Shown one piece after another: positions 4,636-43,224 of a stretch of 43,224 nt of DNA. Position numbers and translations under genes: made by a program. The first letter of the stretch is position 1; every line of letters begins with the position of its first letter. Under the pieces are notes generated by a model. It saw only the letters and a list, made by a program, of their open reading frames with translations, had not been told where the DNA came from and searched no databases. Origin of the DNA: a bacterium (GTDB lineage: Bacteria; Patescibacteriota; Minisyncoccia; Phycocordibacterales; CAIRYW01); NCBI GenBank assembly GCA_031373235.1, contig JANMMK010000077.1, positions 1 through 43,224 on the forward strand, in the 5' to 3' direction.

Positions 4636-5721
4636 CTATCCCCGGAAACCATTCTCCGAGACCCACACACTGAACTCCACATCTTCTTGCCCGTCGTCAG
4701 GGACGATGCTCAAGATTAGCGAGTCCTGTCCTACCGGCAGGTCAAGTTCAATACGGTGTCCATTCCACTGATTCGGCGTCGAGTGGATTGGTGGAACGAC
4801 ATCTGGCATTTCGCCAGATGTAGTCGGACTCTGAACATGAAGAGTTCCTTTGATTCCCGAGACTTCAAAAACCAAACGATGCCGTTTGAGGGTTGTCGTC
4901 ATGAAGGTCTGTACCCTCGTTGTCTTTCCGCCGATGGTGGTCTGCCCGTTTAGGCGTTGCTTTTCGAAGTAGAAAAAACTGTTCCCTGTGAAAGGAAGGT
5001 CGACCACTCCGCCCGCGTATCTGATATTGACCACTGACCCCGGGTCATTCGTGCTTTGGTCTTCGCCAAACGGGTCGATTGTCCCCCGCTGGTAGACAAC
5101 CTTGCTGAAGCGGTTTCGAACTTCGTAGCTCGGAGTTGTCAGCAGGTTGACCCCGACGACGAATCCTCCAAGTCCGAAGTTGTAGTATCCTTGCATCCAA
5201 CCGTCGGTTATTATCTCGACATCGCCAGCAGAAACTCCCGCCGGCAACTTGAAAGGTACGAGCACGTCCATATTCGCAGGCAACATTGTCACTTCGACAG
5301 AGTCGCCGTCGCGAATACCTGTTTGTGAATATGCATCACCCCAAGAGACGTAACTCCCTCCTTGCATTCCACTTAAGGATATCTGGAAGTAATCCGCTCC
5401 CCCCGCAGGAATCGGAAGCGCGCCAAGTGGCTCTTCTCCTTCGCTGAGGATTGGCAGATTGTTGATCCAGAGAGATGCGATGCGTCCGTCGAGGAGCATC
5501 TTCCCCTCGAGAGAGTCGTATCGGTAGTCACCGTCAGGTTTCTGACCGAACTGCATGTAAGCCCTGAAGCTGTAGGAATCCGCAGGCCGAAGTGCCAGTG
5601 CTCGCGCAACAAGGCGCGAGTCAACCGACTGTTCGTCACCAGGCGTCACGATGACGCCGGCGAATGATTGTTGGAGCAAGGTCAAAAGGCCGAGCAGTAA
5701 GAGTGCGATGTTTTTTTTCAT
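4636..5721 (-). CDS. Secreted hypothetical protein encoded by a GC-rich island
   Basis: 361-aa ORF with signal peptide MKKNIALLLLGLLTLLQQSFAG. Codons are mostly G/C-ending and a sample line is about 57% G+C, unlike the neighbouring genes. No family recognised. Confidence 0.7.
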   Translation of the reverse strand: MKKNIALLLLGLLTLLQQSFAGVIVTPGDEQSVDSRLVARALALRPADSYSFRAYMQFGQKPDGDYRYDSLEGKMLLDGRIASLWINNLPILSEGEEPLGALPIPAGGADYFQISLSGMQGGSYVSWGDAYSQTGIRDGDSVEVTMLPANMDVLVPFKLPAGVSAGDVEIITDGWMQGYYNFGLGGFVVGVNLLTTPSYEVRNRFSKVVYQRGTIDPFGEDQSTNDPGSVVNIRYAGGVVDLPFTGNSFFYFEKQRLNGQTTIGGKTTRVQTFMTTTLKRHRLVFEVSGIKGTLHVQSPTTSGEMPDVVPPIHSTPNQWNGHRIELDLPVGQDSLILSIVPDDGQEDVEFSVWVSENGFRG

Positions 5722-5749: not shown

Positions 5750-5986
5750 TTACTTGGCCGAGACTTTCGCCCAGCCGGTGTAGCCTAATTCCCGCAAGCG
5801 CATTTGCGCCGGCGAGAGGTTTTCAGTCTGTGTTGTGTTTGTGTTGTTGTTTGTTGACTGGACCAGAGTGACCGGACCAGTTTTTTTGGTTTCGTCGGTA
5901 GGCGTCATGATGATGCCGATCGACACGAGTATTGCCGTGATGGCAAGAGTTGCGATGTATTTCATTTGTTTTTTTTGCGTGTACAA
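5750..5986 (-). CDS. Small membrane-anchored protein (GC-rich island)
   Basis: 78-aa ORF; the start may instead be the internal MKYIATL at 5964. It has one TM helix followed by a T/N/Q-rich tail. It lies 28 nt upstream of the 361-aa gene on the same strand. Confidence 0.45.
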   Translation of the reverse strand: MYTQKKQMKYIATLAITAILVSIGIIMTPTDETKKTGPVTLVQSTNNNTNTTQTENLSPAQMRLRELGYTGWAKVSAK

Positions 5987-8424: not shown

Positions 8425-8676
8425 TTAAATCCAAGAATTACCCATTATGTTAAATTTATCTAGGTTAAAAAATAAAATTACCAAAGAAACATAAAATATT
8501 AATAGTGAAAAAATATGTCCTGATATTTTGCTTTTAAGACAAAGATACAGAAATAAATTAATAAGTAGAGGAAATACTAAGACTGGAATAAGAAGATTAT
8601 CTAAAAAACTAATTTGAAAAAACCAAGACAGAAAAGCGACTAAAAAATTTAAAAGTATGAGAAAAAATAAAATCAT
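8425..8676 (-). CDS. Small three-helix membrane protein
   Basis: 83-aa, very hydrophobic ORF. Its start overlaps the stop of the 1135-aa gene (ATGA at 8673-8676). Confidence 0.5.
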   Translation of the reverse strand: MILFFLILLNFLVAFLSWFFQISFLDNLLIPVLVFPLLINLFLYLCLKSKISGHIFSLLIFYVSLVILFFNLDKFNIMGNSWI

Positions 8677-11600
8677 CTTAATATTAATTTATTATCGTTA
8701 TTAATTACAAAATATTTATTAATCTTTCCGGTCAAAACCTCTCGCTTCACTCGCTTTCCATTACTTGTATATAGTATAACTGTTTGATTCTTTTTTACAG
8801 AGTAAGAAATACTAATAGAGTCAGTCCCGTACTTAAAAGACTTACTATGACTCGTATCATCTCCTGTCTTCTTATCCACCCCGACATTTAATACTTCTCT
8901 ACCGTAGTTTTTAAGTAAAGGAACTCCATTAATAGCAATAATGTCAATACTTCTCTTGTTTAGGACAGGAGGATAAAATCGTATCTCGATACTACTCTGC
9001 TTTCCAAACACATCAGTAAACTGATACAGAGTTGTTTGATACTTAACTTTAGTACCGTAGATTTTTGTACTGGTAGAAACTGTTGTCGAAGAGACATCTA
9101 CGGGAAAAACTTTAATAACTCTTCCCTCGAAATCAGCATCGAAACCAAACATCGGAGCATTAAGATCTATACCGATAATTTCTTGTTTTACTTTCTCAAT
9201 ATTACCGACCTTATCAACTGACCTGTAATAAAATACATGAGTACCGTCTGTTTCTATCACTACTTCGTTCGTATATTTTTGCCAACTAGTTCCGTCAAAA
9301 GAATATTCGCTTTGAAGTAACCCGCTTTCTCCATCAACTGAGTTAAGCGTAACTGAAACAGGACCAACATAGGCTCCAAAAAGACTTTTATCACCAACAA
9401 GAGAAATAGTTGTTGTCGGGGTATGTTGATCTAAAAGCATTGCCTGATCGAGTGATGCGACTGGAGTCAACTCTACTGTGGTTGTAGCACCAACTGTATC
9501 TACTATAGTCAAAACAGATTCTCCTTCTAGATCTAACTCTGCTTTGGTATCGTCTCCATGGACTGGGAGATTATAGAAATAATCTGTTTTTGTTGTCTCG
9601 CCATTTTCAACATCACTCACTCTTACGTTAAACGTTCCCTCGTCTGTGCCAACCATCTTGACCTCATATTCTCCGTCGTCTGGTATAAAGACAAATTTAT
9701 TATCTTCGACCGTCTCGTACGCAATTCCAGGAATGTCATTTTGTATATCACCTTTCTTATCAGGACCACTATGTCTTCCTTCTCTATCGTAGATATGTAT
9801 ATCAACGGGACTATGGACACTCACTACTTTACCCTTTGGAATACCGCAAACTGCTGTTGAAGTAGAGACTCCACCTAAAATTCCAATTTCGCTATTAGTC
9901 AAAATATTTCCAACAAGTTCCTTCACTCCATTTCTACTTGGCATCGTGGCATGTTCTGCCTCTTTAATGTAATACACTGCTCCTGCAGAAATTGCTTCCG
10001 CACTCATTAGAGGGACAGTGCCATCACCATCTATAAAAGCAAGGTCGTATTCATACTCTCCATTTTCTTTTTTGTTTCTAATCGAGATATTGCCGAGTGT
10101 TGGTGTGCCACAACCGACGATATTCACTACTTCATCTACATAGTTTTTAGGATCAAGTGTATCAAGGGTATCATGTAACTTCTCTGCACTTTCAAGAAGT
10201 CCACTATTTCTTCCGGTGTTCTGGAGTAAGTTTTTTGTTCCAGCATAATTTAGTTCACCGGTAACTTGATTATTATCGATATCAAGCACATCTCGAATTA
10301 CATGTTTATAATCTGTGTACCTATCGTCATAATAATTTTTACTTGGTATCAAAGCGTAGATTGAAGGAAAATTTTGCGAAATTTCTTTTATTTTTTTTGG
10401 AGAAACGACATCTTTACCTAAAAGATCAGACCCAATATTATCTCCAAAAATAAGAGTTTTAGGGGCAAAAGGTGAACCCAAATGAGGAGTAGCGATATCA
10501 ATAAATTTTCTTATATTGTTGTTTTCTTCTCCAAAGTGGTTTAGGTATGACTTCACTAGTAATCCTCCCATACTATGAGCAACAATATCTACTTTTTCTG
10601 AACCAGTTTTTACTCTTACTTCATTTATATACTCAGCAAGTGTCTTGGTAGTACTTGAAACTCCTTTCCACGCCAAATTATCAACATCTTGTCTCCAATC
10701 ATATCCAAAGAAAAAGAGACTATCTTTTTCTTTAAAACCATTTAGACCAAGAGACTCTTCCAAGTCGGCAAAATAGTTGGCAAACAAAGTCTTCTTTAAA
10801 ACACCTTTGGTAAATAAATTTTTTAGATCTAGTAAAACATCTAACTGCCCGTCATCTTTGTTCAGTAAAAGGTTGCCTGCACTCGGCCACACCTCCGTAC
10901 CCTTCTTATCATTTTTATTCAAATAACTCCCCATAATTCCAGGAATAATAATTACCGGAACTTTTTCAGAAGAATTCTCTGGTGAAAGTAACCACGGTTT
11001 AAAGTTTTTTGTTCCAAACACAGAATCTCCCAGACTAACCGTGTTACCAATATGAAAAGGTCCGCTCGCACTTCCCCACCAGTTATTCTTTATATCCACC
11101 TTTCTAATGCCGTTCGTAGCAGAATCATAAACTCTCACACCATCACCGTTTCCACTTACGGAAGAACGACTCACAACCAAACTTCCTGTGCTACTCAGAT
11201 AAAAATATGTATCAATGCCCCTATTATTATTTTCTATCTTTGAGTTGGTCACTGTAAGATTGGCGTTGTAATTTTGAACTCCCGTATCTGACATATTTTT
11301 TATATTCGTCTTATCAACAGAGGCAACAGAAGTTAATCCAGTAGATGCATAGGCTTCAAGTGCAGAATCAGTACCTCCAGAAAAATTTGCTCGTTTCATG
11401 TATAAAGTAGAGTCAAATACACCAACACCTTTCGTAAACAAAAACTTAAAATTAACATTAAACAAATGAAGTAAAGATTTATCAAACAGGGCAATCCCAA
11501 AACTACCCGAACCACCACCCGAAGTTTCAATACTTCCGTCTAAAAAAGATGCGCTCGAAGCATCATAAAGTGCAAGAGCATCACTTTCACCTTCAAAAAT

Positions 11601-17653: not shown

Positions 17654-17690
17654 AGTTGATAGGTGCTAGTTTGTAGTTGGTAGTAATTAA
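17654..17690 (+). repeat. Heptad AGTTNNN array
   Basis: AGTTGAT AGGTGCT AGTTTGT AGTTGGT AGTAATT, period 7. Confidence 0.55.
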
Positions 17691-23722: not shown

Positions 23723-24103
23723 CTACTCCCCTAAAGACAACACCACCTTAACCCTTTTCCCGACTTTAGTCTGGAGAAAGCCTTCGGCTCCGTTCACGTA
23801 AGAAGGAGGAATGGCACCACCTTCACTTTGATAAATGCACCCTGTCGGACGAGGAGAAGTGGCTGACTCCGCCATTCTTGCTTCGATATCGAAGACCCAC
23901 CCAACTCCAGCGTGGTAAGTAACCCGTTTTGGCCGAAGCATTGATTCTCTGGCCTTTTTGTTTGCAGGTTTCCAATTACCGAATGTATTCTTGGGGTAGC
24001 GCGCCCAGCCCACATCCCCTGCTTTCGGATTTGAAGCCAAACACTCGAGACGATGGTTGGTAAACGCAACAATCTCACTTCTCTTAACCTGTACCGTATT
24101 CAT
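23723..24103 (-). CDS. Hypothetical cytoplasmic protein (GC-rich orphan)
   Basis: 126-aa ORF. A sample line is about 53% G+C, against AT-rich flanks. There is no signal peptide and no recognised motif. Confidence 0.45.
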   Translation of the reverse strand: MNTVQVKRSEIVAFTNHRLECLASNPKAGDVGWARYPKNTFGNWKPANKKARESMLRPKRVTYHAGVGWVFDIEARMAESATSPRPTGCIYQSEGGAIPPSYVNGAEGFLQTKVGKRVKVVLSLGE

Positions 24104-26653: not shown

Positions 26654-27427
26654 TTATATCATCCACAAGTTTTTACTATTTTTTAGAAACTGAAAAGAAA
26701 CTTCCTCGAAGGACAAACCTTTTAATTCCGCCGTCTTTTTTATAACTTCAATAACATAGACAGGTTCACACCTATTTCCCCGATGTGGCTTTGGTGCAAC
26801 ATACGGACTATCTGTTTCTGAAAGCAGTCGATCAAGTGGAATACTCTTGACCAACTCGTCGTATTGATTAGCAAAGGTAACAACACCAGTAAAAGAAATA
26901 TAAAAACCTAAATCTAAAAATTCTTTTGCATCTTCCAAAGATCCTGCAAAGAAATGTGCCTCTCCTTTTGAAACAGAATACTCTTTCAATACTCGAAGAG
27001 TTTCTTTATATGCGTCCGTACCGTTACCACTTCTTATATGAAGCATCAGTGGTTTACCAAACTTGAGCGCCAGTTCTATTTGTCCACGAAAAGCAATCTC
27101 CTGTATCTCTTTCGTATCAGGAGTATGGTGAAAAAAATCAAAGCCACACTCCCCTACACCAACCACCTTTGGGTGAGTAATAATTTTTTCAAAAAAATCT
27201 TTGTCGAACGTTTCTTCGATTGAATAAATAGGATGAAGCCCAACAATGGCATAGATGTGTTCATGTCCTTCTGATAATTCTACCGCCTCAGTCGAGGTCT
27301 TCTGACCAGTTCCCACGGTGATAAAAACAACTCCTGCTTCTTTAGCACGGGCAATGACATCGTCTCTGTCCGCATCAAACTCTTTGAAGTTTATGTGGGA
27401 GTGGTTGTCTATGTATTTTATTTCCAT
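26654..27427 (-). CDS. tatD: TatD-family metal-dependent hydrolase
   Basis: 257 aa. Motifs: IDNHSHI, VVGVGECGFDF, PLMLHIR, EAHFFAGS and LLSETDSPY. It has the classic position downstream of metG. Confidence 0.85.
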   Translation of the reverse strand: MEIKYIDNHSHINFKEFDADRDDVIARAKEAGVVFITVGTGQKTSTEAVELSEGHEHIYAIVGLHPIYSIEETFDKDFFEKIITHPKVVGVGECGFDFFHHTPDTKEIQEIAFRGQIELALKFGKPLMLHIRSGNGTDAYKETLRVLKEYSVSKGEAHFFAGSLEDAKEFLDLGFYISFTGVVTFANQYDELVKSIPLDRLLSETDSPYVAPKPHRGNRCEPVYVIEVIKKTAELKGLSFEEVSFQFLKNSKNLWMI

Positions 27428-27434
27428 AGTTATA

Positions 27435-28877
27435 TTAGTCTTTTCTTAGAAAAAGAGGTTTTTCTGGGGCTTTGTTTTCTTTAATAAGATTTTTTATTTT
27501 ATCTGAGGTTTCAGGAAGAAAAGGTTGCAGCTTTTCTGCCACAACAAAAAGCATTCGGACAAAATCTGAAATTAACTTCTTACCTTTTTCATAATCTGTT
27601 TTAATCACTTTAAATGGTTGCTCTGTTTGAATGAGGTTATCTATACTCGCAACATAAGCCCATAAAATATTTAAAGCACCCTGTAGATTAAAAGAATCTA
27701 CTTCTTTTTCGTAATCAAAATTAGGATACACATCTTTAAAAGAAGTTACTGGTCCAGTAAGGTTCGTCTCTGCCATCTTCATAATTCTTGAAGTAAGGTT
27801 CCCGATACCGTTCGCAAGATTCGCATTGTAACTCTCCTTTAGTTTCTCTTTTGAAACAGCAGTATCTTCGAATGGATGAAATTCCCGTAAGACAAAATAC
27901 CGAAGTGCATCTGTGCCATACTCAGCTACCAGTTCAAGTGGATCAATTGTATTACCAAGTGACTTAGACATTTTCACTCCTCCGTCACCTAAAATAAATC
28001 CATTCACAACTATTTGCTTTGTATTTTGGTATCCAGCAGCCATGAGCATTGCTTGCCACATAACACCCTGAAATCTAGTGTTATCTTTACCACAATACTG
28101 GGTAGGAGTTCCGCTATTCCAATATTTTTCAATACCCTCTTCATCATCCAGCGTAGAAAGGTAGTCCGTAAGCGCATCAAACCACACATACATAACATGC
28201 CCTCCGTCACCCGGCACCTCTATTCCCCATGGCATTTTTGATTTTAATCTTGAAATAGAAAAGTCATGAAGTCCTCGCTTAATAAACTCTCGCATTTCAT
28301 TCATTCGAGAATTCGGAATTATAAAATCTGGATTCCCATCATAAAATTTCAAAAGTCTTTCTCCAAAACCACTAAACTTAAAAAAATAATTTTCTTCCTC
28401 GATGATTTCTGGTGCTTTTCTGTGTTCCGGACAAAGTCCTTCCACCAACTCTGAATCTGTTTTTTCTTCTTCGCAACCAACACAATATTTTGTTTTATAA
28501 TTTTTTTTATATATAAAACCATTCTGTAAACATTTGTTCCAGAAGTCTTTAGCAAATGCGATATGCTTTTCGTCTGTTGTTCTAATGAAGTGTATTCCTT
28601 CACCCTCTTTAAGCACTCCAAATTTCTCTAATGTTTCTTTATATAATCGGGCATACTCATCAACATACTCCTTAACTTCTACTCCAGCCTTTTGTGCTGA
28701 CTCAAGAATCTTTTTACCATGTTCATCCGTTCCTGTATTAAAAAACACATCGAAGCCTTGGAGTTTTTTTGCACGCGCAATAGCATCAGCTCTAATTATT
28801 TCTGTGGCATGACCCAAGTGAAGTGGTGCATTCACATACGGCAATGTCGTAGTAATGTAAAAAGGTTTCTGTGACAT
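27435..28877 (-). CDS. metG: Methionyl-tRNA synthetase, short form without a C-terminal tRNA-binding domain
   Basis: 480 aa. Motifs: HLGH (HIGH motif), the Zn knuckle CVGCEEE...CPEH, and KMSKSLGN. Confidence 0.93.
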   Translation of the reverse strand: MSQKPFYITTTLPYVNAPLHLGHATEIIRADAIARAKKLQGFDVFFNTGTDEHGKKILESAQKAGVEVKEYVDEYARLYKETLEKFGVLKEGEGIHFIRTTDEKHIAFAKDFWNKCLQNGFIYKKNYKTKYCVGCEEEKTDSELVEGLCPEHRKAPEIIEEENYFFKFSGFGERLLKFYDGNPDFIIPNSRMNEMREFIKRGLHDFSISRLKSKMPWGIEVPGDGGHVMYVWFDALTDYLSTLDDEEGIEKYWNSGTPTQYCGKDNTRFQGVMWQAMLMAAGYQNTKQIVVNGFILGDGGVKMSKSLGNTIDPLELVAEYGTDALRYFVLREFHPFEDTAVSKEKLKESYNANLANGIGNLTSRIMKMAETNLTGPVTSFKDVYPNFDYEKEVDSFNLQGALNILWAYVASIDNLIQTEQPFKVIKTDYEKGKKLISDFVRMLFVVAEKLQPFLPETSDKIKNLIKENKAPEKPLFLRKD

Positions 28878-31256: not shown

Positions 31257-31319
31257 AGATATAAAGATAACAGAAAAAAGCGGAAGTTAAAAACTATTTT
31301 TAAGAAATTTGTATAGCTC

Positions 31320-31348
31320 TTTACAATACATAGAATATATGCTATAAT
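31320..31348 (+). promoter_or_regulatory. Sigma70-like promoter of the PEP-CTERM gene
   Basis: TTTACA, a 17-nt spacer, then TATAAT. It is followed by a leader of about 85 nt that contains a GTACTT-cgt-AAGTAC hairpin. Confidence 0.55.
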
Positions 31349-31438
31349 ACATATAAATCAGGACACATTGCTCAAGGGGTAACAAACAATCCACCAAAGC
31401 ATCTGTACTTCGTAAGTACGGTACACCTGAAAAAACCT

Positions 31439-32140
31439 ATGAAGAAACTCTTCTTCTTACTGCTCGTTAACATGTTCAGTTTGGCCACCTACGGCCAGCT
31501 CACCGTCACTCCAGCCACAGAAGGATACTTAATGCAGGCCGTTTCGACGGACCTCATCTGGTATTCCGAGGTAGTGTTCCCCACTCCAGAGAACAACACC
31601 TCGACACTGAGTGTTGTGTCACCAGAAGTGGACACTACGCTCCCCGTCACGATCTCCGGATCGGTATCGGGTTCAACAACCACAAGGCGAATCAACTGGC
31701 ACTTCACTGTCGAAGCGACAGGAAGTGCGAGCATAAGTATCCGCGACCGCATCGGTGGAGGCACCGCGGTTGTGGATGGAGATCTTTCTGGATGGGCAAA
31801 CCCCTCGCAAGAAATCATCTTCGCACCCTTTGCAATCGGTGGCTCATCGGGATACGCCTCGATGTGGAACATCAAAGTCACAAGTGGAGGAGTTGAAGTG
31901 CCGATCTCTGGCACTTTCACCTCGCACTTCAATGGCTCACCGGACGAAGTGACTGCGTTCTCGATCGACCCCGGGTGGAGTTATCCTCTCGACATCGAGG
32001 GATGGACAGAGACCACTGTCACCACCGGAGAGACGGACCACATCCGGTCGGTTGGAGTATACGGAGTAGTACCTGAGCCTGGCTCAGGAGCACTGCTTCT
32101 TCTCGGAGGACTGTCGGTACTCGCAAAGCGCCGGAGGTAA
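31439..32140 (+). CDS. Exported protein with a C-terminal PEP-CTERM sorting signal (GC-rich)
   Basis: 233 aa. Signal peptide: MKKLFFLLLVNMFSLATYGQ. C-terminus: VVPEP-GSGALLLLGGLSVLA-KRRR, i.e. PEP motif, TM helix and Arg cluster. A sample line is about 55% G+C. Confidence 0.75.
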   Translation: MKKLFFLLLVNMFSLATYGQLTVTPATEGYLMQAVSTDLIWYSEVVFPTPENNTSTLSVVSPEVDTTLPVTISGSVSGSTTTRRINWHFTVEATGSASISIRDRIGGGTAVVDGDLSGWANPSQEIIFAPFAIGGSSGYASMWNIKVTSGGVEVPISGTFTSHFNGSPDEVTAFSIDPGWSYPLDIEGWTETTVTTGETDHIRSVGVYGVVPEPGSGALLLLGGLSVLAKRRR

Positions 32141-32162
32141 AGAAACTGAACATAAAAACAAC

Positions 32163-32206
32163 AAACGCCATTTTGGGAAACCGGAAAGGCGTTTTGTTTT
32201 TTGTTG
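32163..32206 (+). terminator. Probable terminator
   Basis: AAACGCC, a loop of about 18 nt, GGCGTTT, then TGTTTTTTGTTGATTTTTT. Confidence 0.5.
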
Positions 32207-32239
32207 ATTTTTTAAATTATTAGTATAAGATTTTTTGAA

Positions 32240-32386
32240 ATGAAAGTACTATGCGGATCTTTGGTGGTGATCGGGGCCTGTGGAGGTTACTTCACAGGAA
32301 ATATTCCTGGAGCTCTTTTTGGCGGTGTTACTGCCATCAACTTATCCCTCCAGCTCTGGTGCCGATCCTTCACTAGAAAAAACTAA
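32240..32386 (+). CDS. Small Gly-rich membrane peptide (48 aa, below the ORF-track cutoff)
   Basis: My own translation: MKVLCGSLVVIGACGGYFTGNIPGALFGGVTAINLSLQLWCRSFTRKN*. It is followed by its own terminator. Confidence 0.4.
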   Translation: MKVLCGSLVVIGACGGYFTGNIPGALFGGVTAINLSLQLWCRSFTRKN

Positions 32387-32393
32387 TCTCTAA

Positions 32394-32419
32394 CACCACT
32401 TCCCCGTGGTGATTTTTTT
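32394..32419 (+). terminator. Rho-independent terminator
   Basis: CACCAC-ttcccc-GTGGTG-ATTTTTTT, preceded by CTCTAAC as in the 41830/42650 repeat. Confidence 0.7.
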
Positions 32420-32445
32420 ATTCTTGATGTAGAGTTAATATAAAT

Positions 32446-32643
32446 ATGATATTTGCATTTATACTCCTTGGAGGTCTTGTTGGACTTGGTATTGGTGGTC
32501 TCGTTGACTACCTATCTAGTTCAAACTATCAGACAGCACTGTCTGTGATCGGTTTGTGTCTTGGTGCCCTTACCTACTTCTACCTTGATACCAAATCAAT
32601 GGAAGAAGCTGATCTTAATCAGGACGACCACTATAGAGAATAG
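32446..32643 (+). CDS. Small Gly-zipper membrane protein
   Basis: 65 aa with two hydrophobic Gly-rich helices (LLGGLVGLGIGGLV; VIGLCLGALTYF) and an acidic tail. Confidence 0.5.
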   Translation: MIFAFILLGGLVGLGIGGLVDYLSSSNYQTALSVIGLCLGALTYFYLDTKSMEEADLNQDDHYRE

Positions 32644-32670
32644 CTCTCGGCAATGCCCGAGAGATTTTTT
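32644..32670 (+). terminator. Rho-independent terminator
   Basis: CTCTCGG-caatgc-CCGAGAG-ATTTTTT, immediately after the stop codon. Confidence 0.75.
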
Positions 32671-32745
32671 AATCTCTCACTTTAGCTTCCTCGGTTAGGA
32701 AATACAAAAGATCACTTTTGTATCTCACTCACTCTACGTCGCTAA

Positions 32746-32772
32746 TAAAAAAATCGCAGGAATTTATCCTGC
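32746..32772 (-). terminator. Rho-independent terminator of the 122-aa gene
   Basis: On the minus strand: GCAGGA-taaat-TCCTGC followed by GATTTTTTT. Confidence 0.6.
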
Positions 32773-32789
32773 GCGCTAGTCATGTGAAC

Positions 32790-33158
32790 TTACGTTCCAA
32801 GTGGCGAGACCCTGTGGGCCACGTGAATCCGCCCAACAGCTTTACCCTCAACCCAGACATCCAGAATGCGCCAATGATCCTTTCCATCAACAACGCGCGC
32901 TCCAAGACCTTCAAGTTCCTTGGTGACCGCATCTGTCATCGGCTTTTCGATTCGAATCGGTAAGTGGTCTGATTCTTTGGAACCAAGGTTTGCTGCACGT
33001 TTGATCTTATAAACATGCCCCAGGATTTCGGCCACAACATAGCCCTCTCCCGAAGACTTCTTGATTGCACCGAGGTGTTTTTGAAGCCACAGAAAGAATT
33101 TTTCTGGGTCAGTTGAGATGAGGTTGCCTGCGTAATCGTAGAAGAATATTGTAAGCAT
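32790..33158 (-). CDS. Hypothetical cytoplasmic protein (GC-rich orphan)
   Basis: 122-aa ORF. A sample line is about 53% G+C. No motif recognised. Confidence 0.45.
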   Translation of the reverse strand: MLTIFFYDYAGNLISTDPEKFFLWLQKHLGAIKKSSGEGYVVAEILGHVYKIKRAANLGSKESDHLPIRIEKPMTDAVTKELEGLGARVVDGKDHWRILDVWVEGKAVGRIHVAHRVSPLGT

Positions 33159-33294
33159 TTAATGTTCTGTATCCAAAAGTTCGTCTTGCCAAAGGATTAC
33201 TATTTTGAATGGTTTTTGTTGCGAAGCAAGTTAGAGGTTGTTTTGGCAACTTGTTTTCAAATGTATTTATACCTCAAAAGAAATCCTCGTCAAT

Positions 33295-33732
33295 CTATTC
33301 GATACTTCCCAGTACACTCACTTCCCTTTTATTTACTAATTCAATTAATTCTTCGAGAGTCCAGGACAGTGGCGCATCGATACCTCCCGCATGAATACGC
33401 GTGCCATTAAAAAACAAAACGAGTTGCTCTTTTGCATGGACACCCTTATCTGGAACACCTCTTTCCATTTGGATAATAGTTCCATTTTTAATACCTAGTA
33501 TATTTTCAGGAACTTCTGGAATATCCGCTTCCTGAAGCATCTGCTTAAAAGAGCTCCGCCACACACCCTCGAAGTCAGCCATGTCTGTATGTTTGCCCGG
33601 TAGTATTTCTACATTAGGAGGTAACGCACCAAAAACAGCATCACCGAGATAGATAGTAGATGCATCTACTTCTGGTTTTTCTTCTCCAAAAAAAGGAAAC
33701 TGAATAATTTTATCTTCCGGGTTGTTACCCAT
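33295..33732 (-). CDS. Hypothetical protein downstream of glyQS
   Basis: 145-aa ORF starting 3 nt after the glyQS stop. It is acidic and has no recognised motif. Confidence 0.5.
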   Translation of the reverse strand: MGNNPEDKIIQFPFFGEEKPEVDASTIYLGDAVFGALPPNVEILPGKHTDMADFEGVWRSSFKQMLQEADIPEVPENILGIKNGTIIQMERGVPDKGVHAKEQLVLFFNGTRIHAGGIDAPLSWTLEELIELVNKREVSVLGSIE

Positions 33733-33735
33733 ACC

Positions 33736-37730: not shown

Positions 37731-37910
37731 GATGAAACGACAACCATTCGTGACCTTCGTCGTCATCGGATTCCATGCTGGATTCCGTATGCTCCGAGCC
37801 GAAGGTCGGCTCTTTTGGGATGGTCCCTTTGGACCAACCCTGCTCGGGTAGCCCCGGGCAACTTCACAAATGCGCAGTCTGGTCACCACCTTACTGCGCA
37901 TTTCGTTTTT
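37731..37910 (+). ncRNA. Candidate structured sRNA of unknown family (about 180 nt)
   Basis: A sample line is about 63% G+C. There are five consecutive hairpins: 37731-37767, 37796-37812, 37817-37840, 37842-37859, and an 11-bp terminator stem at 37868-37903 followed by CGTTTTTT. One U.G pair exists only on the plus strand. The ORFs here look spurious. Confidence 0.45.
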
Positions 37911-40900
37911 TATATCTTCTCTACAACAACCCCCACCTCCCCTTCTTCAAAAGAGACTGCATCCGCTTGGGCTACTTTTGTTATAAGACTTTTCCACTCT
38001 GTTTTTTCAAACAAGTTACGCGATTGATCACCGTAAACTTTTACTTTTATTCTGTCTTTCGGAGTAAGATTTTTTTCTTTTCTTTGTTCTTGGACTTCAC
38101 GGATAACATCACGCACAACACCTTCTTCTTTAAGCTCAAGAGTTAATACCGTGTCGAGCAATACTTCTTCTACTAAAGTAGCGTCACAAAAAACTTCTTT
38201 TACATTGAGCTCGTCTTTTATTATCTCAAGGTATTCACTCTTAAGATCTTGCTTGATAGTAAGTTTTTGAAGTGGTTGCCTTACTTTTATATTAACTTTT
38301 TGTCTTTGTTCGAGTCCTAAAGAAACAATCTTTCTTACCTCTTTCATTTCTTTAATAATCTCTTCACTATTAACTCTCAACTCTTCACCACTGACTACTT
38401 CAGGCCATCCTTCTAAATGAACACTCTCTTCATCATTTTGTATTCTAAGTTTCTGGAAAAGATGTTCTGCAAAGAATGGAGCAAATGGAGCCATATACTT
38501 ACTTAAAGTTTTAAGAACAAAATACAATGTTTTCTTTGCATCTACATCTTCCTCTTTCAGTCTTTCCCTTGATCTTCTGACGTACCAAGTTGATAAGTCA
38601 TCGACAAATTCTTTAAGTAATCGCACTGGTTCAAAAAGTTTAAACTCATCAAGATACTTTGTTCCAGAAGAAAGCATTTCATTGAGGCGAGACAAGATCC
38701 ATATATCTAAAACATTTTCTGATGTCGGCATGTCATTACTTTCAAGTGAAATATCTCGGTAGAGATCATAGAAACTGTGCACATTAGAAACAAGATTAAA
38801 TATCTTCTTCACTATTTCATCAACAGTTTTTTCATCAAAGTTTTTACTCTCTCCTGGTTGATTCACGCTGTACATCCATAGACGAAGTGCATCTACTCCA
38901 TATTTATCAATCATCTCCCAAGGGTTCACAATATTTCCAAGACTCTTACTCATCTTCTTTCCTTCTTTATCAAGAATGTGTCCGAGACAAATTACATTTT
39001 TATACGCTCTCCCCTTGCCCATAAGTACACCTACTGCATGAAGTGTATAAAACCATCCACGAGTTTGGTCTATCGCTTCACTAATAAAGTCAGCAGGAAA
39101 AGCAACTTCCTTGGTAGAGAAAGGATAATTATCTTGTGCAAAAGGCATCGCTCCCGAATCAAACCACACGTCCATTACTTCTTTTGTTCGCTTGAGTATA
39201 CTGCCGTTTTCACCAACCAGTTCGACGGTGTCTATGTATGGTCGATGTAAATCGAGCCGATACTCTTCATCGTGAGGAAGTGGTGCAAAGACTAATTCTT
39301 TGTAATGTCCTGGTTCGATAAAATTTACTCCTGGTGTATAGATTTTTTCTATTTCACTATCGAGTGCCCCTTCAGCCACACACTTCATAAGCTTTGCAGG
39401 TCCATCATGTGTCACCATCAAAATATTTTTACCTTCATACTTGCTTTCGGTTTCGTAGAGAAACTCGCCCACTCTTCTTTTTACTTCCATTAAGGTTTCA
39501 GCGCTATCAAATTTCTTAAAAATACGATCCTTAAATGTTGGATATATTTTTTCAAACTCACTCCATGGTTTTCCGGAGAGCACTCCAAACCGCTCTTCGT
39601 GAAGACGGTCATCGACAACTGCTTCCACACCAAGCACTTCAGAGGCAATACTTGCTGTTTCTGCTGTCCTTAAAATTGGAGAATGGATAATGAGATCAAT
39701 ATTTTCTTTTTTTAGTAGCCCTGCATTTTCTCTGACTAGTGCCCTACCCTTTTCTGTAAGCGGATGAACAGCTTCTTCGTCACTACTTAAAACTCCAGCC
39801 ACATTATGACTCGCTTCTCCATGTCGCATCAAAAAATATTTGTTGCCAGATTTTTTGGTTTTTTCTTTGAGAGTTTTTATTGAATCAAGAATGAATCTTT
39901 CTTTACCGTCAGCACTTTCCCATACCGGAAGTGGTGTCCCCCAATATCGCTCCCTTGAAATCGCCCAGTCTTTCACTTCTTTAAGCCACTCACCAAATCG
40001 TCCATCTTTAATATAAGACGGCTCCCAATTTATTTTCTGGTTTTCTTCCATGAGAGAATCCCTGAGACTAGACATTTTTATATACCAAGAATCTCTCGCA
40101 TAATAGATAAGTGGAGTTTTACACCGCCAACAATGTGGATATGAGTGTTCGTATTTTTCTTTCTTAAAGAGCAGTCCTCTGTGTGCAAGGTCTTTGATGA
40201 CATCAATAGCAACGGCTTCATCTTTTACAAATCGTCCAGAAAACTCTCCACACCATTCTTTAAAAGTTCCATCCTCATTTACCGTGTGCATTTTTGGAAG
40301 TCCGACTTTTGTCCCAAGCGCAAAGTCATCTTGTCCATACATAACAGCGGTGTGCACGATTCCTGTTCCATCTGTTGTAGTAACAAAGTCAGCTCCATAT
40401 ACTCTAAAGGCTTTTGAAGCATCAATTCCTTTTTTCTCTAATTCATTTTTAAGAAATGGATAAAGTGGTTCATATTCTAAACCAACCAAGTCTTTTCCCT
40501 TAACCTCTTTGTAAGTAAAAGCCACCGAATGTTCGGCCTGCTCGTCACCTTGATCATGAGGAAGTATATGTTTAAGCATTTCCTCCATTCTTGATTTCGC
40601 AAAAATCAAAGTCTCTTTTTCGAATTTTACTTTCACATACTCAATCTCAGTCCCTACAGCCAGTGCAACATTCCCCGGTAAAGTCCACGGGGTTGTAGTC
40701 CATGCAAGAAAATAAGTCGGTAAGTCGTCAGTTGGTAAGTTAGTAAGTTTAAACTTCGCGTACACCGACAAATCTTTTACATCTTGATATCCTTGTGCGA
40801 GTTCGTGAGAAGAAAGTCCTGTCCCGCATCTTGGACACCATGGCACCACCTTGTAGTCCTTATATAGTAAATTTTTGTCTGCAACTGTCTTCACGATATT

Positions 40901-41386
40901 CCAGAGAGACTCGATGTAAGAATTGTGAAAAGTAAAATATGCATTTTCTTGATCAACCCAATATCCGATTCTTTTTGTAAATCTTCCCCAATCTTCAAGA
41001 TAGGTAAATACACTTTCTTTACACTTTTTGTTAAACTCAGCAACACCAAACTTTTCGATGTCTTTCTTTGAGGTAAGTTTGAGTTCTTTTTCTACTTGAA
41101 GCTCCACTGGAAGTCCATGCGTATCCCATCCACCTTTTCTTCTGACATGAAATCCTTGCATGGTTTTGAAACGAGGAATAGCGTCCTTAAATGCTCTTGC
41201 TTCAAGATGGTGAATTCCTGGCTTTCCATTTGCTGTTGGAGGACCTTCAAAAAACACAAACTCACCTTTTGGCGAATCTTTTTTGAGTGTTTCTGCAAAA
41301 ATATTCTTTTCCTCCCAAAACTTCAAGACCTCTTCTTCACGAAGTGCATGTGGGCTTTTTTCTGAATTTTTTTCTTGTTCTACCAT
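37910..41386 (-). CDS. ileS: Isoleucyl-tRNA synthetase (type 2) with an inserted histidine-phosphatase domain
   Basis: 1158 aa. IleRS motifs: PPTANGKPGIHH, the WCPRCGT editing/CP1 region, WGTPLPVW, DLHRPYID, VWFDSG and KMSKSLGN. The insertion of about 220 aa spans residues W489 to D712. Confidence 0.95.
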   Translation of the reverse strand: MVEQEKNSEKSPHALREEEVLKFWEEKNIFAETLKKDSPKGEFVFFEGPPTANGKPGIHHLEARAFKDAIPRFKTMQGFHVRRKGGWDTHGLPVELQVEKELKLTSKKDIEKFGVAEFNKKCKESVFTYLEDWGRFTKRIGYWVDQENAYFTFHNSYIESLWNIVKTVADKNLLYKDYKVVPWCPRCGTGLSSHELAQGYQDVKDLSVYAKFKLTNLPTDDLPTYFLAWTTTPWTLPGNVALAVGTEIEYVKVKFEKETLIFAKSRMEEMLKHILPHDQGDEQAEHSVAFTYKEVKGKDLVGLEYEPLYPFLKNELEKKGIDASKAFRVYGADFVTTTDGTGIVHTAVMYGQDDFALGTKVGLPKMHTVNEDGTFKEWCGEFSGRFVKDEAVAIDVIKDLAHRGLLFKKEKYEHSYPHCWRCKTPLIYYARDSWYIKMSSLRDSLMEENQKINWEPSYIKDGRFGEWLKEVKDWAISRERYWGTPLPVWESADGKERFILDSIKTLKEKTKKSGNKYFLMRHGEASHNVAGVLSSDEEAVHPLTEKGRALVRENAGLLKKENIDLIIHSPILRTAETASIASEVLGVEAVVDDRLHEERFGVLSGKPWSEFEKIYPTFKDRIFKKFDSAETLMEVKRRVGEFLYETESKYEGKNILMVTHDGPAKLMKCVAEGALDSEIEKIYTPGVNFIEPGHYKELVFAPLPHDEEYRLDLHRPYIDTVELVGENGSILKRTKEVMDVWFDSGAMPFAQDNYPFSTKEVAFPADFISEAIDQTRGWFYTLHAVGVLMGKGRAYKNVICLGHILDKEGKKMSKSLGNIVNPWEMIDKYGVDALRLWMYSVNQPGESKNFDEKTVDEIVKKIFNLVSNVHSFYDLYRDISLESNDMPTSENVLDIWILSRLNEMLSSGTKYLDEFKLFEPVRLLKEFVDDLSTWYVRRSRERLKEEDVDAKKTLYFVLKTLSKYMAPFAPFFAEHLFQKLRIQNDEESVHLEGWPEVVSGEELRVNSEEIIKEMKEVRKIVSLGLEQRQKVNIKVRQPLQKLTIKQDLKSEYLEIIKDELNVKEVFCDATLVEEVLLDTVLTLELKEEGVVRDVIREVQEQRKEKNLTPKDRIKVKVYGDQSRNLFEKTEWKSLITKVAQADAVSFEEGEVGVVVEKI

Positions 41387-41487: not shown

Positions 41488-41835
41488 ATGCCTCATATCT
41501 CTCTCGAGTTCCTTGATACTAATGGGAACCAACACCCTTACGGAAATCTTATTCTACTTGCAAAAGACCTCATTTCTGCAGTAGAAGGAATAACTGAACT
41601 TAACATCGACAAAGACGCTGTGTCCTGTTCTCAAATCCAATCAACTTCACTCACCCCAACAAATAGGATAATTGCAAAAGTGTCCTGTCTATTGGCAAAA
41701 AAAGGTCGTGATGACTCAACCGTCGCTAAAGTTGCTAAAGTCGTAGCCGAAACGATAAAGAAGTACTTTCCAAAGTTTACTATTGAAGTGGTTGTTGAAC
41801 CCTTAGTTCCCATGTCCTACATTATCACTCTCTAA
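41488..41835 (+). CDS. Hypothetical protein (possible tautomerase-superfamily member, Pro-1)
   Basis: 115 aa that begins MPHISLEF. The size and the N-terminal Pro are reminiscent of MIF/tautomerase folds, which is a weak inference only. Confidence 0.35.
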   Translation: MPHISLEFLDTNGNQHPYGNLILLAKDLISAVEGITELNIDKDAVSCSQIQSTSLTPTNRIIAKVSCLLAKKGRDDSTVAKVAKVVAETIKKYFPKFTIEVVVEPLVPMSYIITL

Positions 41836-41891
41836 CGCCAGGCTTGTCCTCGGCGATTTTTATTTACCTACCAATATTGACTTTTTATATA
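41830..41891 (+). repeat. Terminator-promoter cassette, copy A
   Basis: The 32-mer CTCTAACGCCAGGCTTGTCCTCGGCGATTTTT is a bulged 7-bp hairpin plus T run. After a variable spacer comes the 16-mer ATTGACTTTTTATATA, which holds the -35 box TTGACT. A -10 box TATAAA follows 16 nt later. Confidence 0.8.
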
Positions 41892-41913
41892 GATATGATA
41901 TAAATTTTTTTGA

Positions 41914-42639
41914 ATGAACACGTCACACAACCAAATGTGGGTAACGAGTGGAACTCGTTTACCTTTAACCGCAGTGAGGAATGCTGCATCACTACTAACA
42001 ATCCTGCTCTTCGTACTCACAACGATAAGCTACGGACAATACACCGGCTTCTCCTACTCCACCGGCCCCGACCGTTGGAGCTATATCGCTCAGGGTTCAG
42101 GACTAGAGCTGCCAGAAAACGGCACTCAATTCTTTGCGCCCTATACGCGATACCCGGCCAGCCAAAACTACTCAAACAGCCTGGAGTTGAGCATCTACAC
42201 CCCCGCCGGACCAATCATCCCACCATTTCAGTTTCCCACTCCCGACAGTGACTGGAACATCAACCTCCATGCACCAAACAATGGGTTACTTGAAGAAGGG
42301 GTCTTCATCGCAACGAGATACCCATTTAACAGCCCTGATGTTATGGGGTTCACATGGTATGGAAACGGAAGAGGGCTAAACATCTCCACATCTTGGGTTG
42401 AGATATTGGAAGTCGAATACATCGGTGTTGGAGGACCACCAAGCAAACTAGCCTTTGACTTCGTGCAGTTTGAGGAAATCTCCCCTGCACAAAACCCAAC
42501 ACTTGAAACATCAAGATGGTCATTTGGCTCCTACCGGTACAACTCGAGCGTACCACTGAATGTTGTGCCGGAACCAAGCACCTCCATACTTGGGATGCTG
42601 GGAATGCTCCTTATAGCAAGACGAAAACGTCAAAGCTAA
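41914..42639 (+). CDS. Exported protein with a C-terminal PEP-CTERM sorting signal (GC-rich)
   Basis: 241 aa. Signal peptide: ...AASLLTILLFVLTTISYGQ. C-terminus: VVPEP-STSILGMLGMLLIA-RRKRQS. A sample line is about 58% G+C. Confidence 0.75.
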   Translation: MNTSHNQMWVTSGTRLPLTAVRNAASLLTILLFVLTTISYGQYTGFSYSTGPDRWSYIAQGSGLELPENGTQFFAPYTRYPASQNYSNSLELSIYTPAGPIIPPFQFPTPDSDWNINLHAPNNGLLEEGVFIATRYPFNSPDVMGFTWYGNGRGLNISTSWVEILEVEYIGVGGPPSKLAFDFVQFEEISPAQNPTLETSRWSFGSYRYNSSVPLNVVPEPSTSILGMLGMLLIARRKRQS

Positions 42640-42649
42640 TAACTACCAA

Positions 42650-42711
42650 CTCTAACGCCAGGCTTGTCCTCGGCGATTTTTTATATTTAAGCACTATTGA
42701 CTTTTTATATA
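42650..42711 (+). repeat. Terminator-promoter cassette, copy B
   Basis: The 32-mer and 16-mer are identical to copy A and occur in the same order. The -10 box TAATAT lies 16 nt after TTGACT. Confidence 0.8.
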
Positions 42712-42782
42712 TTTATGTTAATATAGTAAAAAATACCCTCAGAAATCACAGAAACTCAACCAAGTCAAAAACTACCGAAATC

Positions 42783-43224
42783 ATGAAAACAATCATCTCG
42801 CTCTTTACAGCGATCATCATCACCGCAGTCCTTTCGGGCTGCACAGGATCAGTCGACGGACGCATCACTGCATCCATCGGCTCAAACCGCCAAGGCAACC
42901 ACGGAGGTGGACCAGTTTACAACGGGCTCCCCACCCCAACCATCCAGAGTCTCCGCTCCAGTGGCAGAGACGCCTCAGGAGTTGCCCGTTGGGCAATGGA
43001 GAACGGATATCGGCTCCAGGAGTCGAACGTTGTCAGGGAAGCCCGTCACTGTGGACCCTCTTGCGCGGTAACGCGAAAGAGTGTCCTTCAGAGGACTTGG
43101 GTTCGAACGACCCCTGTCCCTATGGCAACGCCCCCGCAATATCTTCGGGCGCCAAGTCCGGCGGACCAACTCTACCAGAGGCCAATCGGGGTAGACTGCT
43201 ATAGTCCGATCTACCCGCCACAGT
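42783..43224 (+). CDS. Putative lipoprotein, 3'-truncated by the window end (GC-rich)
   Basis: My own translation is open from the ATG at 42783 to the window end: MKTIISLFTAIIITAVLSGC|TGSVDG..., with lipobox LSGC. It is absent from the ORF track because no stop codon is reached. Confidence 0.55.
   Translation, partial: MKTIISLFTAIIITAVLSGCTGSVDGRITASIGSNRQGNHGGGPVYNGLPTPTIQSLRSSGRDASGVARWAMENGYRLQESNVVREARHCGPSCAVTRKSVLQRTWVRTTPVPMATPPQYLRAPSPADQLYQRPIGVDCYSPIYPPQ

Follow-up and report, generated by a model that had tools for sequence, protein, structure and literature searches.

PEP-CTERM-class sorting signals on two secreted proteins of a Paceibacteria contig

Two genes in a genome assigned to the Paceibacteria, a group of the candidate phyla radiation (CPR, Patescibacteria), encode proteins with C-terminal tails of the PEP-CTERM type. 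The genes, termed here PEP1 (open reading frame (ORF) 31439-32140, + strand) and PEP2 (ORF 41914-42639, +), are found on contig JANMMK010000077.1 of assembly GCA_031373235.1, and the whole stretch of 43,224 nt, which makes up the complete contig, is referred to as the window. Very probably they specify genuine PEP-CTERM-class proteins that have long been resident in the CPR lineage. We lean towards the reading that they are surface proteins of a flexible Paceibacteria genome, with a PEP-CTERM-class sorting domain as a tag that is read by an enzyme. That a sorting enzyme does process the tag is about an even chance. The PEP-CTERM domain as such is known already; the novelty lies in a conserved family of such proteins in a lineage regarded as devoid of an outer membrane, and in the decoupled, G+C-rich evolution of the PEP1 gene.

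PEP1 is a predicted secreted protein of 233 aa. Its N-terminus reads MKKLFFLLLVNMFSLATYG/Q, where the slash marks the end of a signal peptide recognized by inspection (aa 1-20, 31439-31498, +), and its C-terminus reads VVPEPGSGALLLLGGLSVLAKRRR; the PEP-CTERM domain occupies aa 211-233 (32069-32137, +). For the mature part, a high content of beta-strands is predicted. PEP2 is a predicted secreted protein of 241 aa. A hydrophobic N-terminal segment, ...RNAASLLTILLFVLTTISYG/Q, ends in ISYG/Q, and the C-terminus is VVPEPSTSILGMLGMLLIARRKRQS, with the PEP-CTERM domain at aa 218-240 (42565-42633, +). Both tails consist of VPEP, a hydrophobic helix and an RRR/RRKR cluster. The initial annotation described them as canonical tripartite PEP-CTERM tails on proteins with N-terminal signal peptides and proposed a check with the NCBIfam model TIGR02595. 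This description holds. The last 23 residues are matched by the model end to end, with 21.8 bits for PEP1 and 17.8 bits for PEP2, both above the curated cut-off of 16 bits, and N-terminal signal peptides are seen by inspection in PEP1 and PEP2 and, in the same layout, in all homologues. The Pfam model PF07589 (cut-off 20.7 bits) gives 22.0 bits for PEP2 and 18.2 bits, slightly under the cut-off, for PEP1. Homologues P0002, P0003, P0006, P0007, P0008 and the L087 protein also pass TIGR02595.

TIGR02595 does not merely detect a helix followed by basic residues, since a 426-aa protein encoded at 1364-2644, which has a generic C-terminal helix and basic tail, gives no match. Nor are two tails in 43 kb a chance occurrence, because no further PEP-CTERM-like tail came up when 1.36 Mb of sequence from 80 other Paceibacteria species was scanned for the motif. 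The two targets are unrelated to each other, and none was added by an extra 10 kb from a sister genome. Among NCBIfam models, only those of PEP-CTERM type come near or above threshold; GPS-CTERM and MYXO-CTERM stay far under their cut-offs. A sub-threshold Pfam match of PEP1 to DUF6299 (E 0.0099, 16.1 bits vs 26.8) was dismissed. An exact look-up of PEP1 and PEP2 in public assemblies returned no record.

The surroundings of PEP1 are those of an independent gene. The M16 peptidase gene and PEP1 are divergent, and a promoter-like site for PEP1 (31320-31348, +) sits in an A+T-rich spacer; it has TTTACA, a 17 nt spacer and TG-TATAAT, with 11 of 12 consensus positions and an extended -10. Downstream there is a probable terminator (32163-32203, +), read from the sequence as a hairpin, AAACGCC ... 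GGCGTTT, and a T-run. It was missed by the scan program owing to its long loop. PEP1 and PEP2 form transcription units of their own, each in a variable islet with conserved housekeeping genes on either side.

The assignment of the contig to the Paceibacteria rests on sequence comparisons. The M16 peptidase of the window has 588 relatives in the GTDB species set. The best 80 of these, at 46-54% identity, are nearly all labelled Paceibacteria, Parcubacteria, Patescibacteria or a candidate phylum therein, for example Zambryskibacteria, Nomurabacteria, Yonathbacteria or Taylorbacteria; a few of the best matches are labelled merely "bacterium", "uncultured bacterium" or "uncultured Candidatus Saccharibacteria bacterium". 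A metagenome-assembled genome (MAG) of the same species, GCA_031429715.1, has the window's genes at 95-100% nucleotide identity and an identical RecA. In this sister MAG (locus L085), a 23S rRNA gene of 3985 nt lies beyond the window's left end (L085 11459-15443) and contains two group I introns; group I introns in 23S rRNA are a hallmark of CPR. A tRNA and 5S rRNA come after this gene. The initial annotation's view of the genome as CPR-like is thus confirmed, and an ordinary diderm is ruled out by the M16-peptidase matches and the 23S introns. It is established knowledge that CPR cells have no outer membrane, and no outer-membrane gene is present in the 43-kb window. This host would therefore be without the outer membrane that goes with PEP-CTERM/exosortase systems.

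Both genes depart markedly in base composition from the genes around them, as the initial annotation had pointed out. The G+C content is 0.548 for PEP1 and 0.494 for PEP2, and the G+C content at third codon positions (GC3) is 0.607 and 0.525, respectively, compared with 0.296 +/- 0.040 (maximum 0.41) for the 22 core genes of the window that serve as reference. The two genes are 5.7 to 7.8 standard deviations above the core, with sharp G+C steps at their borders. One explanation, favored by these values, is a recent horizontal import from a G+C-richer diderm, possibly a host, the tail being a non-functional relic of the donor's exosortase system. The location in variable islets would also fit. 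Sharp steps at gene borders might arise as well if the G+C-rich segments were an assembly or binning artefact from another organism, but the chance of this is negligible. PEP1 lies on one contig between Paceibacteria housekeeping genes on both sides, three further assemblies of separate origin (NCBI MAG, Logan and ENA) show the same arrangement, and the A+T-rich promoter and terminator are continuous with PEP1.

The distribution of PEP1 homologues bears on the question of import. Only three close homologues, with 86-88% identity, emerged when 5.8 billion proteins were searched through a word index. HMMER, run exhaustively against 1.84 billion representatives, contributed one more, the remote full-length homologue P0012. 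This protein has 237 aa, 29% identity to PEP1, a signal peptide and the C-terminus QVPEPGSALLGIMGGSVILLRRKR. In neither set were PEP1 homologues found in contexts other than Paceibacteria contigs, and there was no phage match. Homologues with flanks available come from L001 (an NCBI MAG of the same species), L002 (the Logan assembly of SRR25018350) and L088 (an ENA forest-soil contig that carries P0012). All are at one syntenic junction, between the M16 peptidase and the glycyl-tRNA synthetase (GlyRS), and in these three loci and the window the gene order is M16 peptidase, PEP1, small ORFs, GlyRS, DUF11 protein, RecO and isoleucyl-tRNA synthetase (IleRS). L088 and the window have 54.5% identity in GlyRS, 41.5% in IleRS, 35% in RecO and 29% in the DUF11 protein. 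The divergence of the PEP1 family is therefore on a par with that of other fast-evolving genes in the two organisms, and the family is found at the M16 peptidase-GlyRS junction in Paceibacteria as far apart as 54% in GlyRS and 42% in IleRS.

A 29%-identical protein at the same junction, with no homologue elsewhere, contradicts a recent diderm import of PEP1; a divergence this wide excludes a recent event. The comparison of best hits by taxonomy, which the initial annotation had proposed, put every PEP1 homologue on Paceibacteria contigs and revealed no diderm donor. The junction itself does attract insertions. Across 65 Paceibacteria species, the spacing between GlyRS and M16 peptidase genes is usually 0-100 bp, with unrelated small cargo in about 30, and by these comparisons the junction behaves as an insertion hot spot across the Paceibacteria, a property that would favor import. 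The cargo includes toxin-antitoxin-like and NUDIX-like genes and small ORFs. GlyRS, the M16 peptidase and an AI-2E transporter form a conserved Paceibacteria gene cluster (window 31257-33735; loci L003-L082 near their position 10000). The patchy presence of PEP1 may be due to losses, or to old transfers within the Paceibacteria.

PEP1 is under purifying selection, as indicated by ratios of nonsynonymous to synonymous substitution rates (dN/dS) of about 0.09 (0.093 vs L001, 0.096 vs L002 and 0.087 between L001 and L002). This also argues against the import reading. PEP1 and PEP2 are real, selected genes. In comparison with L001, there is a divergent tract at ~31400-32140 with 84% nucleotide identity, and the flanks are 97-100% identical; dS is 0.70 for PEP1, 0.08 for the M16 peptidase and 0.10 for GlyRS. 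In comparison with the far more distant L002, flanking dS is 1.8-2.2, i.e. saturated, and PEP1 dS is 0.87. Thus, three close PEP1 alleles are approximately equidistant (dS 0.70, 0.80 and 0.87) regardless of genome distance. The L001 signal-peptide segment is 90% identical to L002 and 68% to the window. Because the alleles are equidistant while flanking dS differs, the PEP1 genealogy is seen as decoupled from that of its flanks, which points to a probable exchange of alleles among lineages by recombination.

Other mosaic tracts in the same-species pair fit this recombination picture: TatD/MetRS, the 3′ part of a 1135-aa gene, and a non-homologous swap of a 122-aa ORF. The 1135-aa gene encodes an LCAT-like (esterase-like) secreted protein, and its 3′ two-thirds are 85% identical to L085/L001 (window 8673-10715). 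TatD and MetRS are 87% identical to L085/L001 (window 26654-28877), and adjoining sequence is 97-100% identical. By their identity profiles, the 85% and 87% tracts look like recombination tracts.

A further property of the PEP1 family is its constant composition. All four genes have a GC3 of 0.60-0.64, in backgrounds with a GC3 of 0.25-0.39. The high values persist in every background although flanks are saturated, and this is the opposite of what amelioration of an old import should produce; the lasting high GC3 is not accounted for by recent transfer. Three candidate sources may be considered: gene conversion with a bias towards G+C at a recombination hot spot, selection for rare codons that end in G or C, and repeated replacement from an unseen G+C-richer pool. 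With respect to PEP1, the import proposed in the initial annotation is thus not borne out.

For PEP2 the question is more open. The remote homologues P0006-P0008 have 38-42% identity by BLASTP and 40-46% in a four-sequence alignment, and a metagenome scan with the PEP2 family added one 1.2-kb contig (L087 protein, 32% identity). The sister MAG carries PEP2 over its first 215 nt at least, with ~98% identity. Of the sequences that carry PEP2-family members (L083, L084 and L087), L083 and L084 are contigs without taxon assignment that have an A+T-rich backbone (core GC3 0.16-0.26) with G+C-richer accessory genes interspersed, the PEP-CTERM gene included. This is the pattern seen in the window, and the presence of PEP2 homologues in low-G+C contigs also argues against import from a G+C-richer donor.

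On the other side there is a weak relative of the PEP2 core domain on pSn, the conjugative plasmid of Simkania negevensis (37% identity over 102 aa, E 4e-4). This relative, WP_013935016.1 (L089 2773-3357), is a 194-aa secreted hypothetical protein without a PEP-CTERM tail and is the only plasmid match of PEP2; no relative of the PEP2 family was found in IMG/VR. The PEP-CTERM domain has been described as behaving like a "suffix" (PMC3237569), and the tail-less core domain in Simkania matches this behavior. The gene for WP_013935016.1 adjoins a recombinase and a group II intron.

PEP2 is also flanked by a 71-nt direct repeat (family D2), which would be in keeping with import. Copy 1 (41830-41900, +) is directly upstream of PEP2, opens with the final codons of a 115-aa gene and consists of a hairpin and T-run, then a TTGACT promoter-like box. 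Copy 2 (42650-42720, +) is directly upstream of a lipoprotein gene. The two copies share 83% identity, without a single difference in the first 32 nt, where 0 matches are expected by chance. The repeats suggest tandem cassettes, or an insertion that duplicated the spacer. For the two genes together, recent import from a diderm is very unlikely, with the tail-less Simkania relative and the contigs without taxon assignment keeping the matter more open for PEP2 than for PEP1.

A different question is whether the PEP motif is read by anything. The initial annotation had considered an unrecognized sortase-like processing system, and support for this is indirect, from the invariance of PEP across both small families. 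In the alignment of PEP1 with P0012, which has 28% identical columns, the best 14-column window is GVYGV---VPEPGS, with 11 identities and three gap columns. P-E-P is invariant in the four-sequence PEP2-family alignment, where 42 columns are invariant overall, and VPEP is present in the L087 protein, the fifth family member. A plain membrane anchor would need no motif, and together with these alignments, small as they are, this is indirect evidence that the motif may be recognized by something.

The main rival, which the initial annotation had also raised, is that the tail is just such a plain C-terminal (type I) membrane anchor in a genome without an exosortase, and that PEP is inherited baggage or a helix cap. 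This is possible, if rather doubtful. CPR genomes are small and reduced, and in a cell with no outer membrane the helix alone gives surface display. Even an unprocessed PEP-CTERM domain has been described as a cytoplasmic-membrane tether (PMC12188702), and none of the sequences searched gave an exosortase. However, the motif region is the best-conserved part of PEP1 at 29% overall identity, P-E-P does not vary in the PEP2 family, and the protein encoded at 1364-2644 in the same genome is C-terminally anchored without a PEP motif. In addition, the negative result for exosortase covers a small fraction of the genome.

Several points weigh against the favored reading as a whole. The search for an exosortase-like gene in the window, L088, L083 and a further ~10 kb of the sister MAG was negative, and there was none among 12 clusters of polytopic ORFs from 1.4 Mb of Paceibacteria loci. 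Surveys have found the PEP-CTERM domain restricted to outer-membrane bacteria and always accompanied by exosortase (PMC3237569), and no literature was found that links PEP-CTERM or exosortase to CPR. The P0012 tail scores 14.4 bits with TIGR02595, under the cut-off. The families are small (PEP1, four close members and one remote; PEP2, five members), so that the statistics of motif conservation are thin. AlphaFold2 models are of low confidence, with pLDDT values of 31 for PEP1 and 52 for PEP2, and a role of the ectodomains is not derivable from them. When the PEP2 model was compared with PDB entries by Foldseek, nothing matched at E <= 0.001, and no fold was assigned.

The search for a sorting enzyme can be described further. 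The four polytopic membrane proteins of the window are an MscS-like channel, DUF2339, FtsK and an AI-2E transporter, none exosortase-like; the initial annotation was therefore right in reporting no such gene in the 43 kb. From the Paceibacteria loci, the polytopic clusters scanned comprise PrsW, EamA, a histidine kinase, MFS, SecY, a lycopene-cyclase-like protein and two proteins without a family, the remainder being AI-2E, MscS, DUF2339 and FtsW. Well under a fifth of one genome is covered by this negative, and it is weak negative evidence. Exosortase genes are usually far from their targets. No polysaccharide-synthesis genes are next to PEP1 or PEP2. About 8 kb past the window's left end, the sister MAG has a GT2 glycosyltransferase and a polytopic protein without a family that has 10 predicted membrane helices.

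If the tag is read, as we lean towards, the pathway might be as follows. PEP1 and PEP2 would be exported by the Sec pathway and the signal peptide cleaved after ..YG/Q. The C-terminal helix, with the Arg/Lys cluster in the cytoplasm, would keep the ectodomain at the external side of the only membrane. An intramembrane sorting enzyme, with its gene elsewhere in the genome and most plausibly of the exosortase/archaeosortase family, would then recognize the PEP sequence that abuts the helix. Such an enzyme would cleave the helix, then re-anchor or release the protein. Without a sorting enzyme, the tail still works as a type I anchor.

Similarities to known sorting systems are found on several sides. 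With the PEP-CTERM/exosortase systems of outer-membrane bacteria (XrtA/EpsH, XrtB and the cyanoexosortases), the two proteins share a tripartite tail that passes TIGR02595 and an N-terminal signal peptide. They are also small, rich in Ser, Thr and Gly and without enzyme homology, and the tail is a suffix on a domain that exists without it, as in the Simkania relative of PEP2. They differ in that the host belongs to a group regarded as having no outer membrane, no exosortase or exopolysaccharide locus was found nearby, just two targets are seen, and the genes are G+C outliers in a flexible islet. Genomes with PEP-CTERM/exosortase systems have many unrelated targets, often 20 or more.

An outer membrane is not required for such chemistry, because ArtA/PGF-CTERM operates in archaea and XrtG/Firmicu-CTERM in a Firmicute. 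In Haloferax and other archaea, the PGF-CTERM signal read by ArtA is likewise tripartite and works in a single-membrane envelope. ArtA cuts off the helix of PGF-CTERM and links a lipid to the protein (bioRxiv 10.1101/2023.06.07.544157), and this coupling of cleavage to lipid re-anchoring provides the most plausible working model for a cell that has no outer membrane. Here, however, the motif is PEP and not PGF, neither PGF-CTERM nor other archaeosortase-target models are matched, the organism is bacterial and no sortase gene is seen. The XrtG/Firmicu-CTERM system exists in Lactiplantibacillus, and it is a case of an exosortase-family enzyme and C-terminal targets operating in monoderms (PMC12854382). 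XrtG systems are compact cassettes in which sortase and glycosyltransferase genes are adjacent, but there is no such cassette here.

Sortase A/LPXTG of Gram-positives likewise achieves monoderm surface display by a C-terminal motif, a helix and a basic tail, but no LPXTG is present in PEP1 or PEP2 and the enzyme family is unrelated. Unlike LPXTG, the PEP1 and PEP2 motif abuts the helix with no spacer between, the usual layout of signals that intramembrane enzymes cleave. Among the matches listed for the window proteins (E up to 10) and for the homologues (E up to 1) there are none to the Firmicu-CTERM, PGF-CTERM or LPXTG models; HMMER filters drop most matches above E ~0.1.

There is also the thought that the genome has no exosortase/archaeosortase homologue at all, and that PEP is maintained because it is read by a new, non-homologous family of CPR enzymes or by the exosortase of a diderm host. 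We consider this improbable. If a host exosortase did act where epibiont and host are in contact, PEP1 and PEP2 would be host-interface factors that borrow the sorting machinery of the host, and a codon usage that stays host-like and rich in G+C would be in keeping with a gene pool that is common to this interface or adapted to it.

The findings extend the PEP-CTERM signal to the largest bacterial radiation regarded as being without an outer membrane. One may ask whether CPR cells have an exosortase/archaeosortase-like enzyme or a new one, and what role such a system plays when there is no outer membrane. To our knowledge, very few surface molecules have been identified for epibiotic CPR cells. 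PEP1 and PEP2, which are predicted to be surface-exposed, evolve rapidly and have alleles that are apparently exchanged, are candidates for factors by which these cells contact a host or the environment. The contrast between accessory secreted genes with a GC3 of ~0.6 and genomes with a GC3 of ~0.3 may bear on G+C evolution driven by recombination or, alternatively, on the source of the CPR flexible gene pool.

PEP1 and PEP2 are not the only G+C-rich genes for secreted proteins in the window; the others were missed by the initial annotation. A third G+C-rich islet (4636-5721, - strand; GC 0.533, GC3 0.59) holds the gene of a secreted protein of 361 aa, which has a signal peptide but lacks a PEP-CTERM tail. 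This protein has an orthologue in the sister MAG, and it matches no Pfam or NCBIfam family and no plasmid protein. A frameshifted PEP-CTERM tail after the gene was looked for, and there is none in any frame. Upstream is an ORF for a predicted membrane-anchored protein of 71 aa (5750-5965, -; GC3 0.65). The lipoprotein gene behind the second D2 repeat (42783-43224, +; GC 0.585, GC3 0.61) has an LSGC lipobox and is truncated by the contig end. To a lesser degree, the variable 122-aa ORF in the M16 peptidase-GlyRS islet (32790-33158, -; GC 0.485) also belongs here. In L001 this ORF is replaced by non-homologous sequence with a 107-aa gene.

The accessory genes of the variable islets are in fact all enriched in G+C, with a GC3 of 0.45-0.65 vs ~0.3 for the core, and most encode secreted or membrane proteins. 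Several L083 genes are likewise G+C-enriched accessory genes. L088 has a different G+C-rich membrane-protein gene (8814-9521) right after IleRS, at approximately the position of PEP2 in the window.

The IleRS of the window (37910-41386, -; 1158 aa) has a histidine-phosphatase domain (His_Phos_1, phosphoglycerate-mutase-like) inserted in the middle of the enzyme, and the same is true of the L088 IleRS. A tRNA-Thr(CGT) is predicted by ARAGORN at 23797-23881 (-). With 85 nt and the anticodon at position 31, it is longer than the usual tRNA-Thr, and a spurious 126-aa ORF overlaps it. There is also a repeat family, D1, represented by a 41-nt element in five intergenic copies (at 17654, 21121, 22716, 24871 and 25646). 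The element is made of AGTTAATAGTT-like units with a period of ~10-11 nt.

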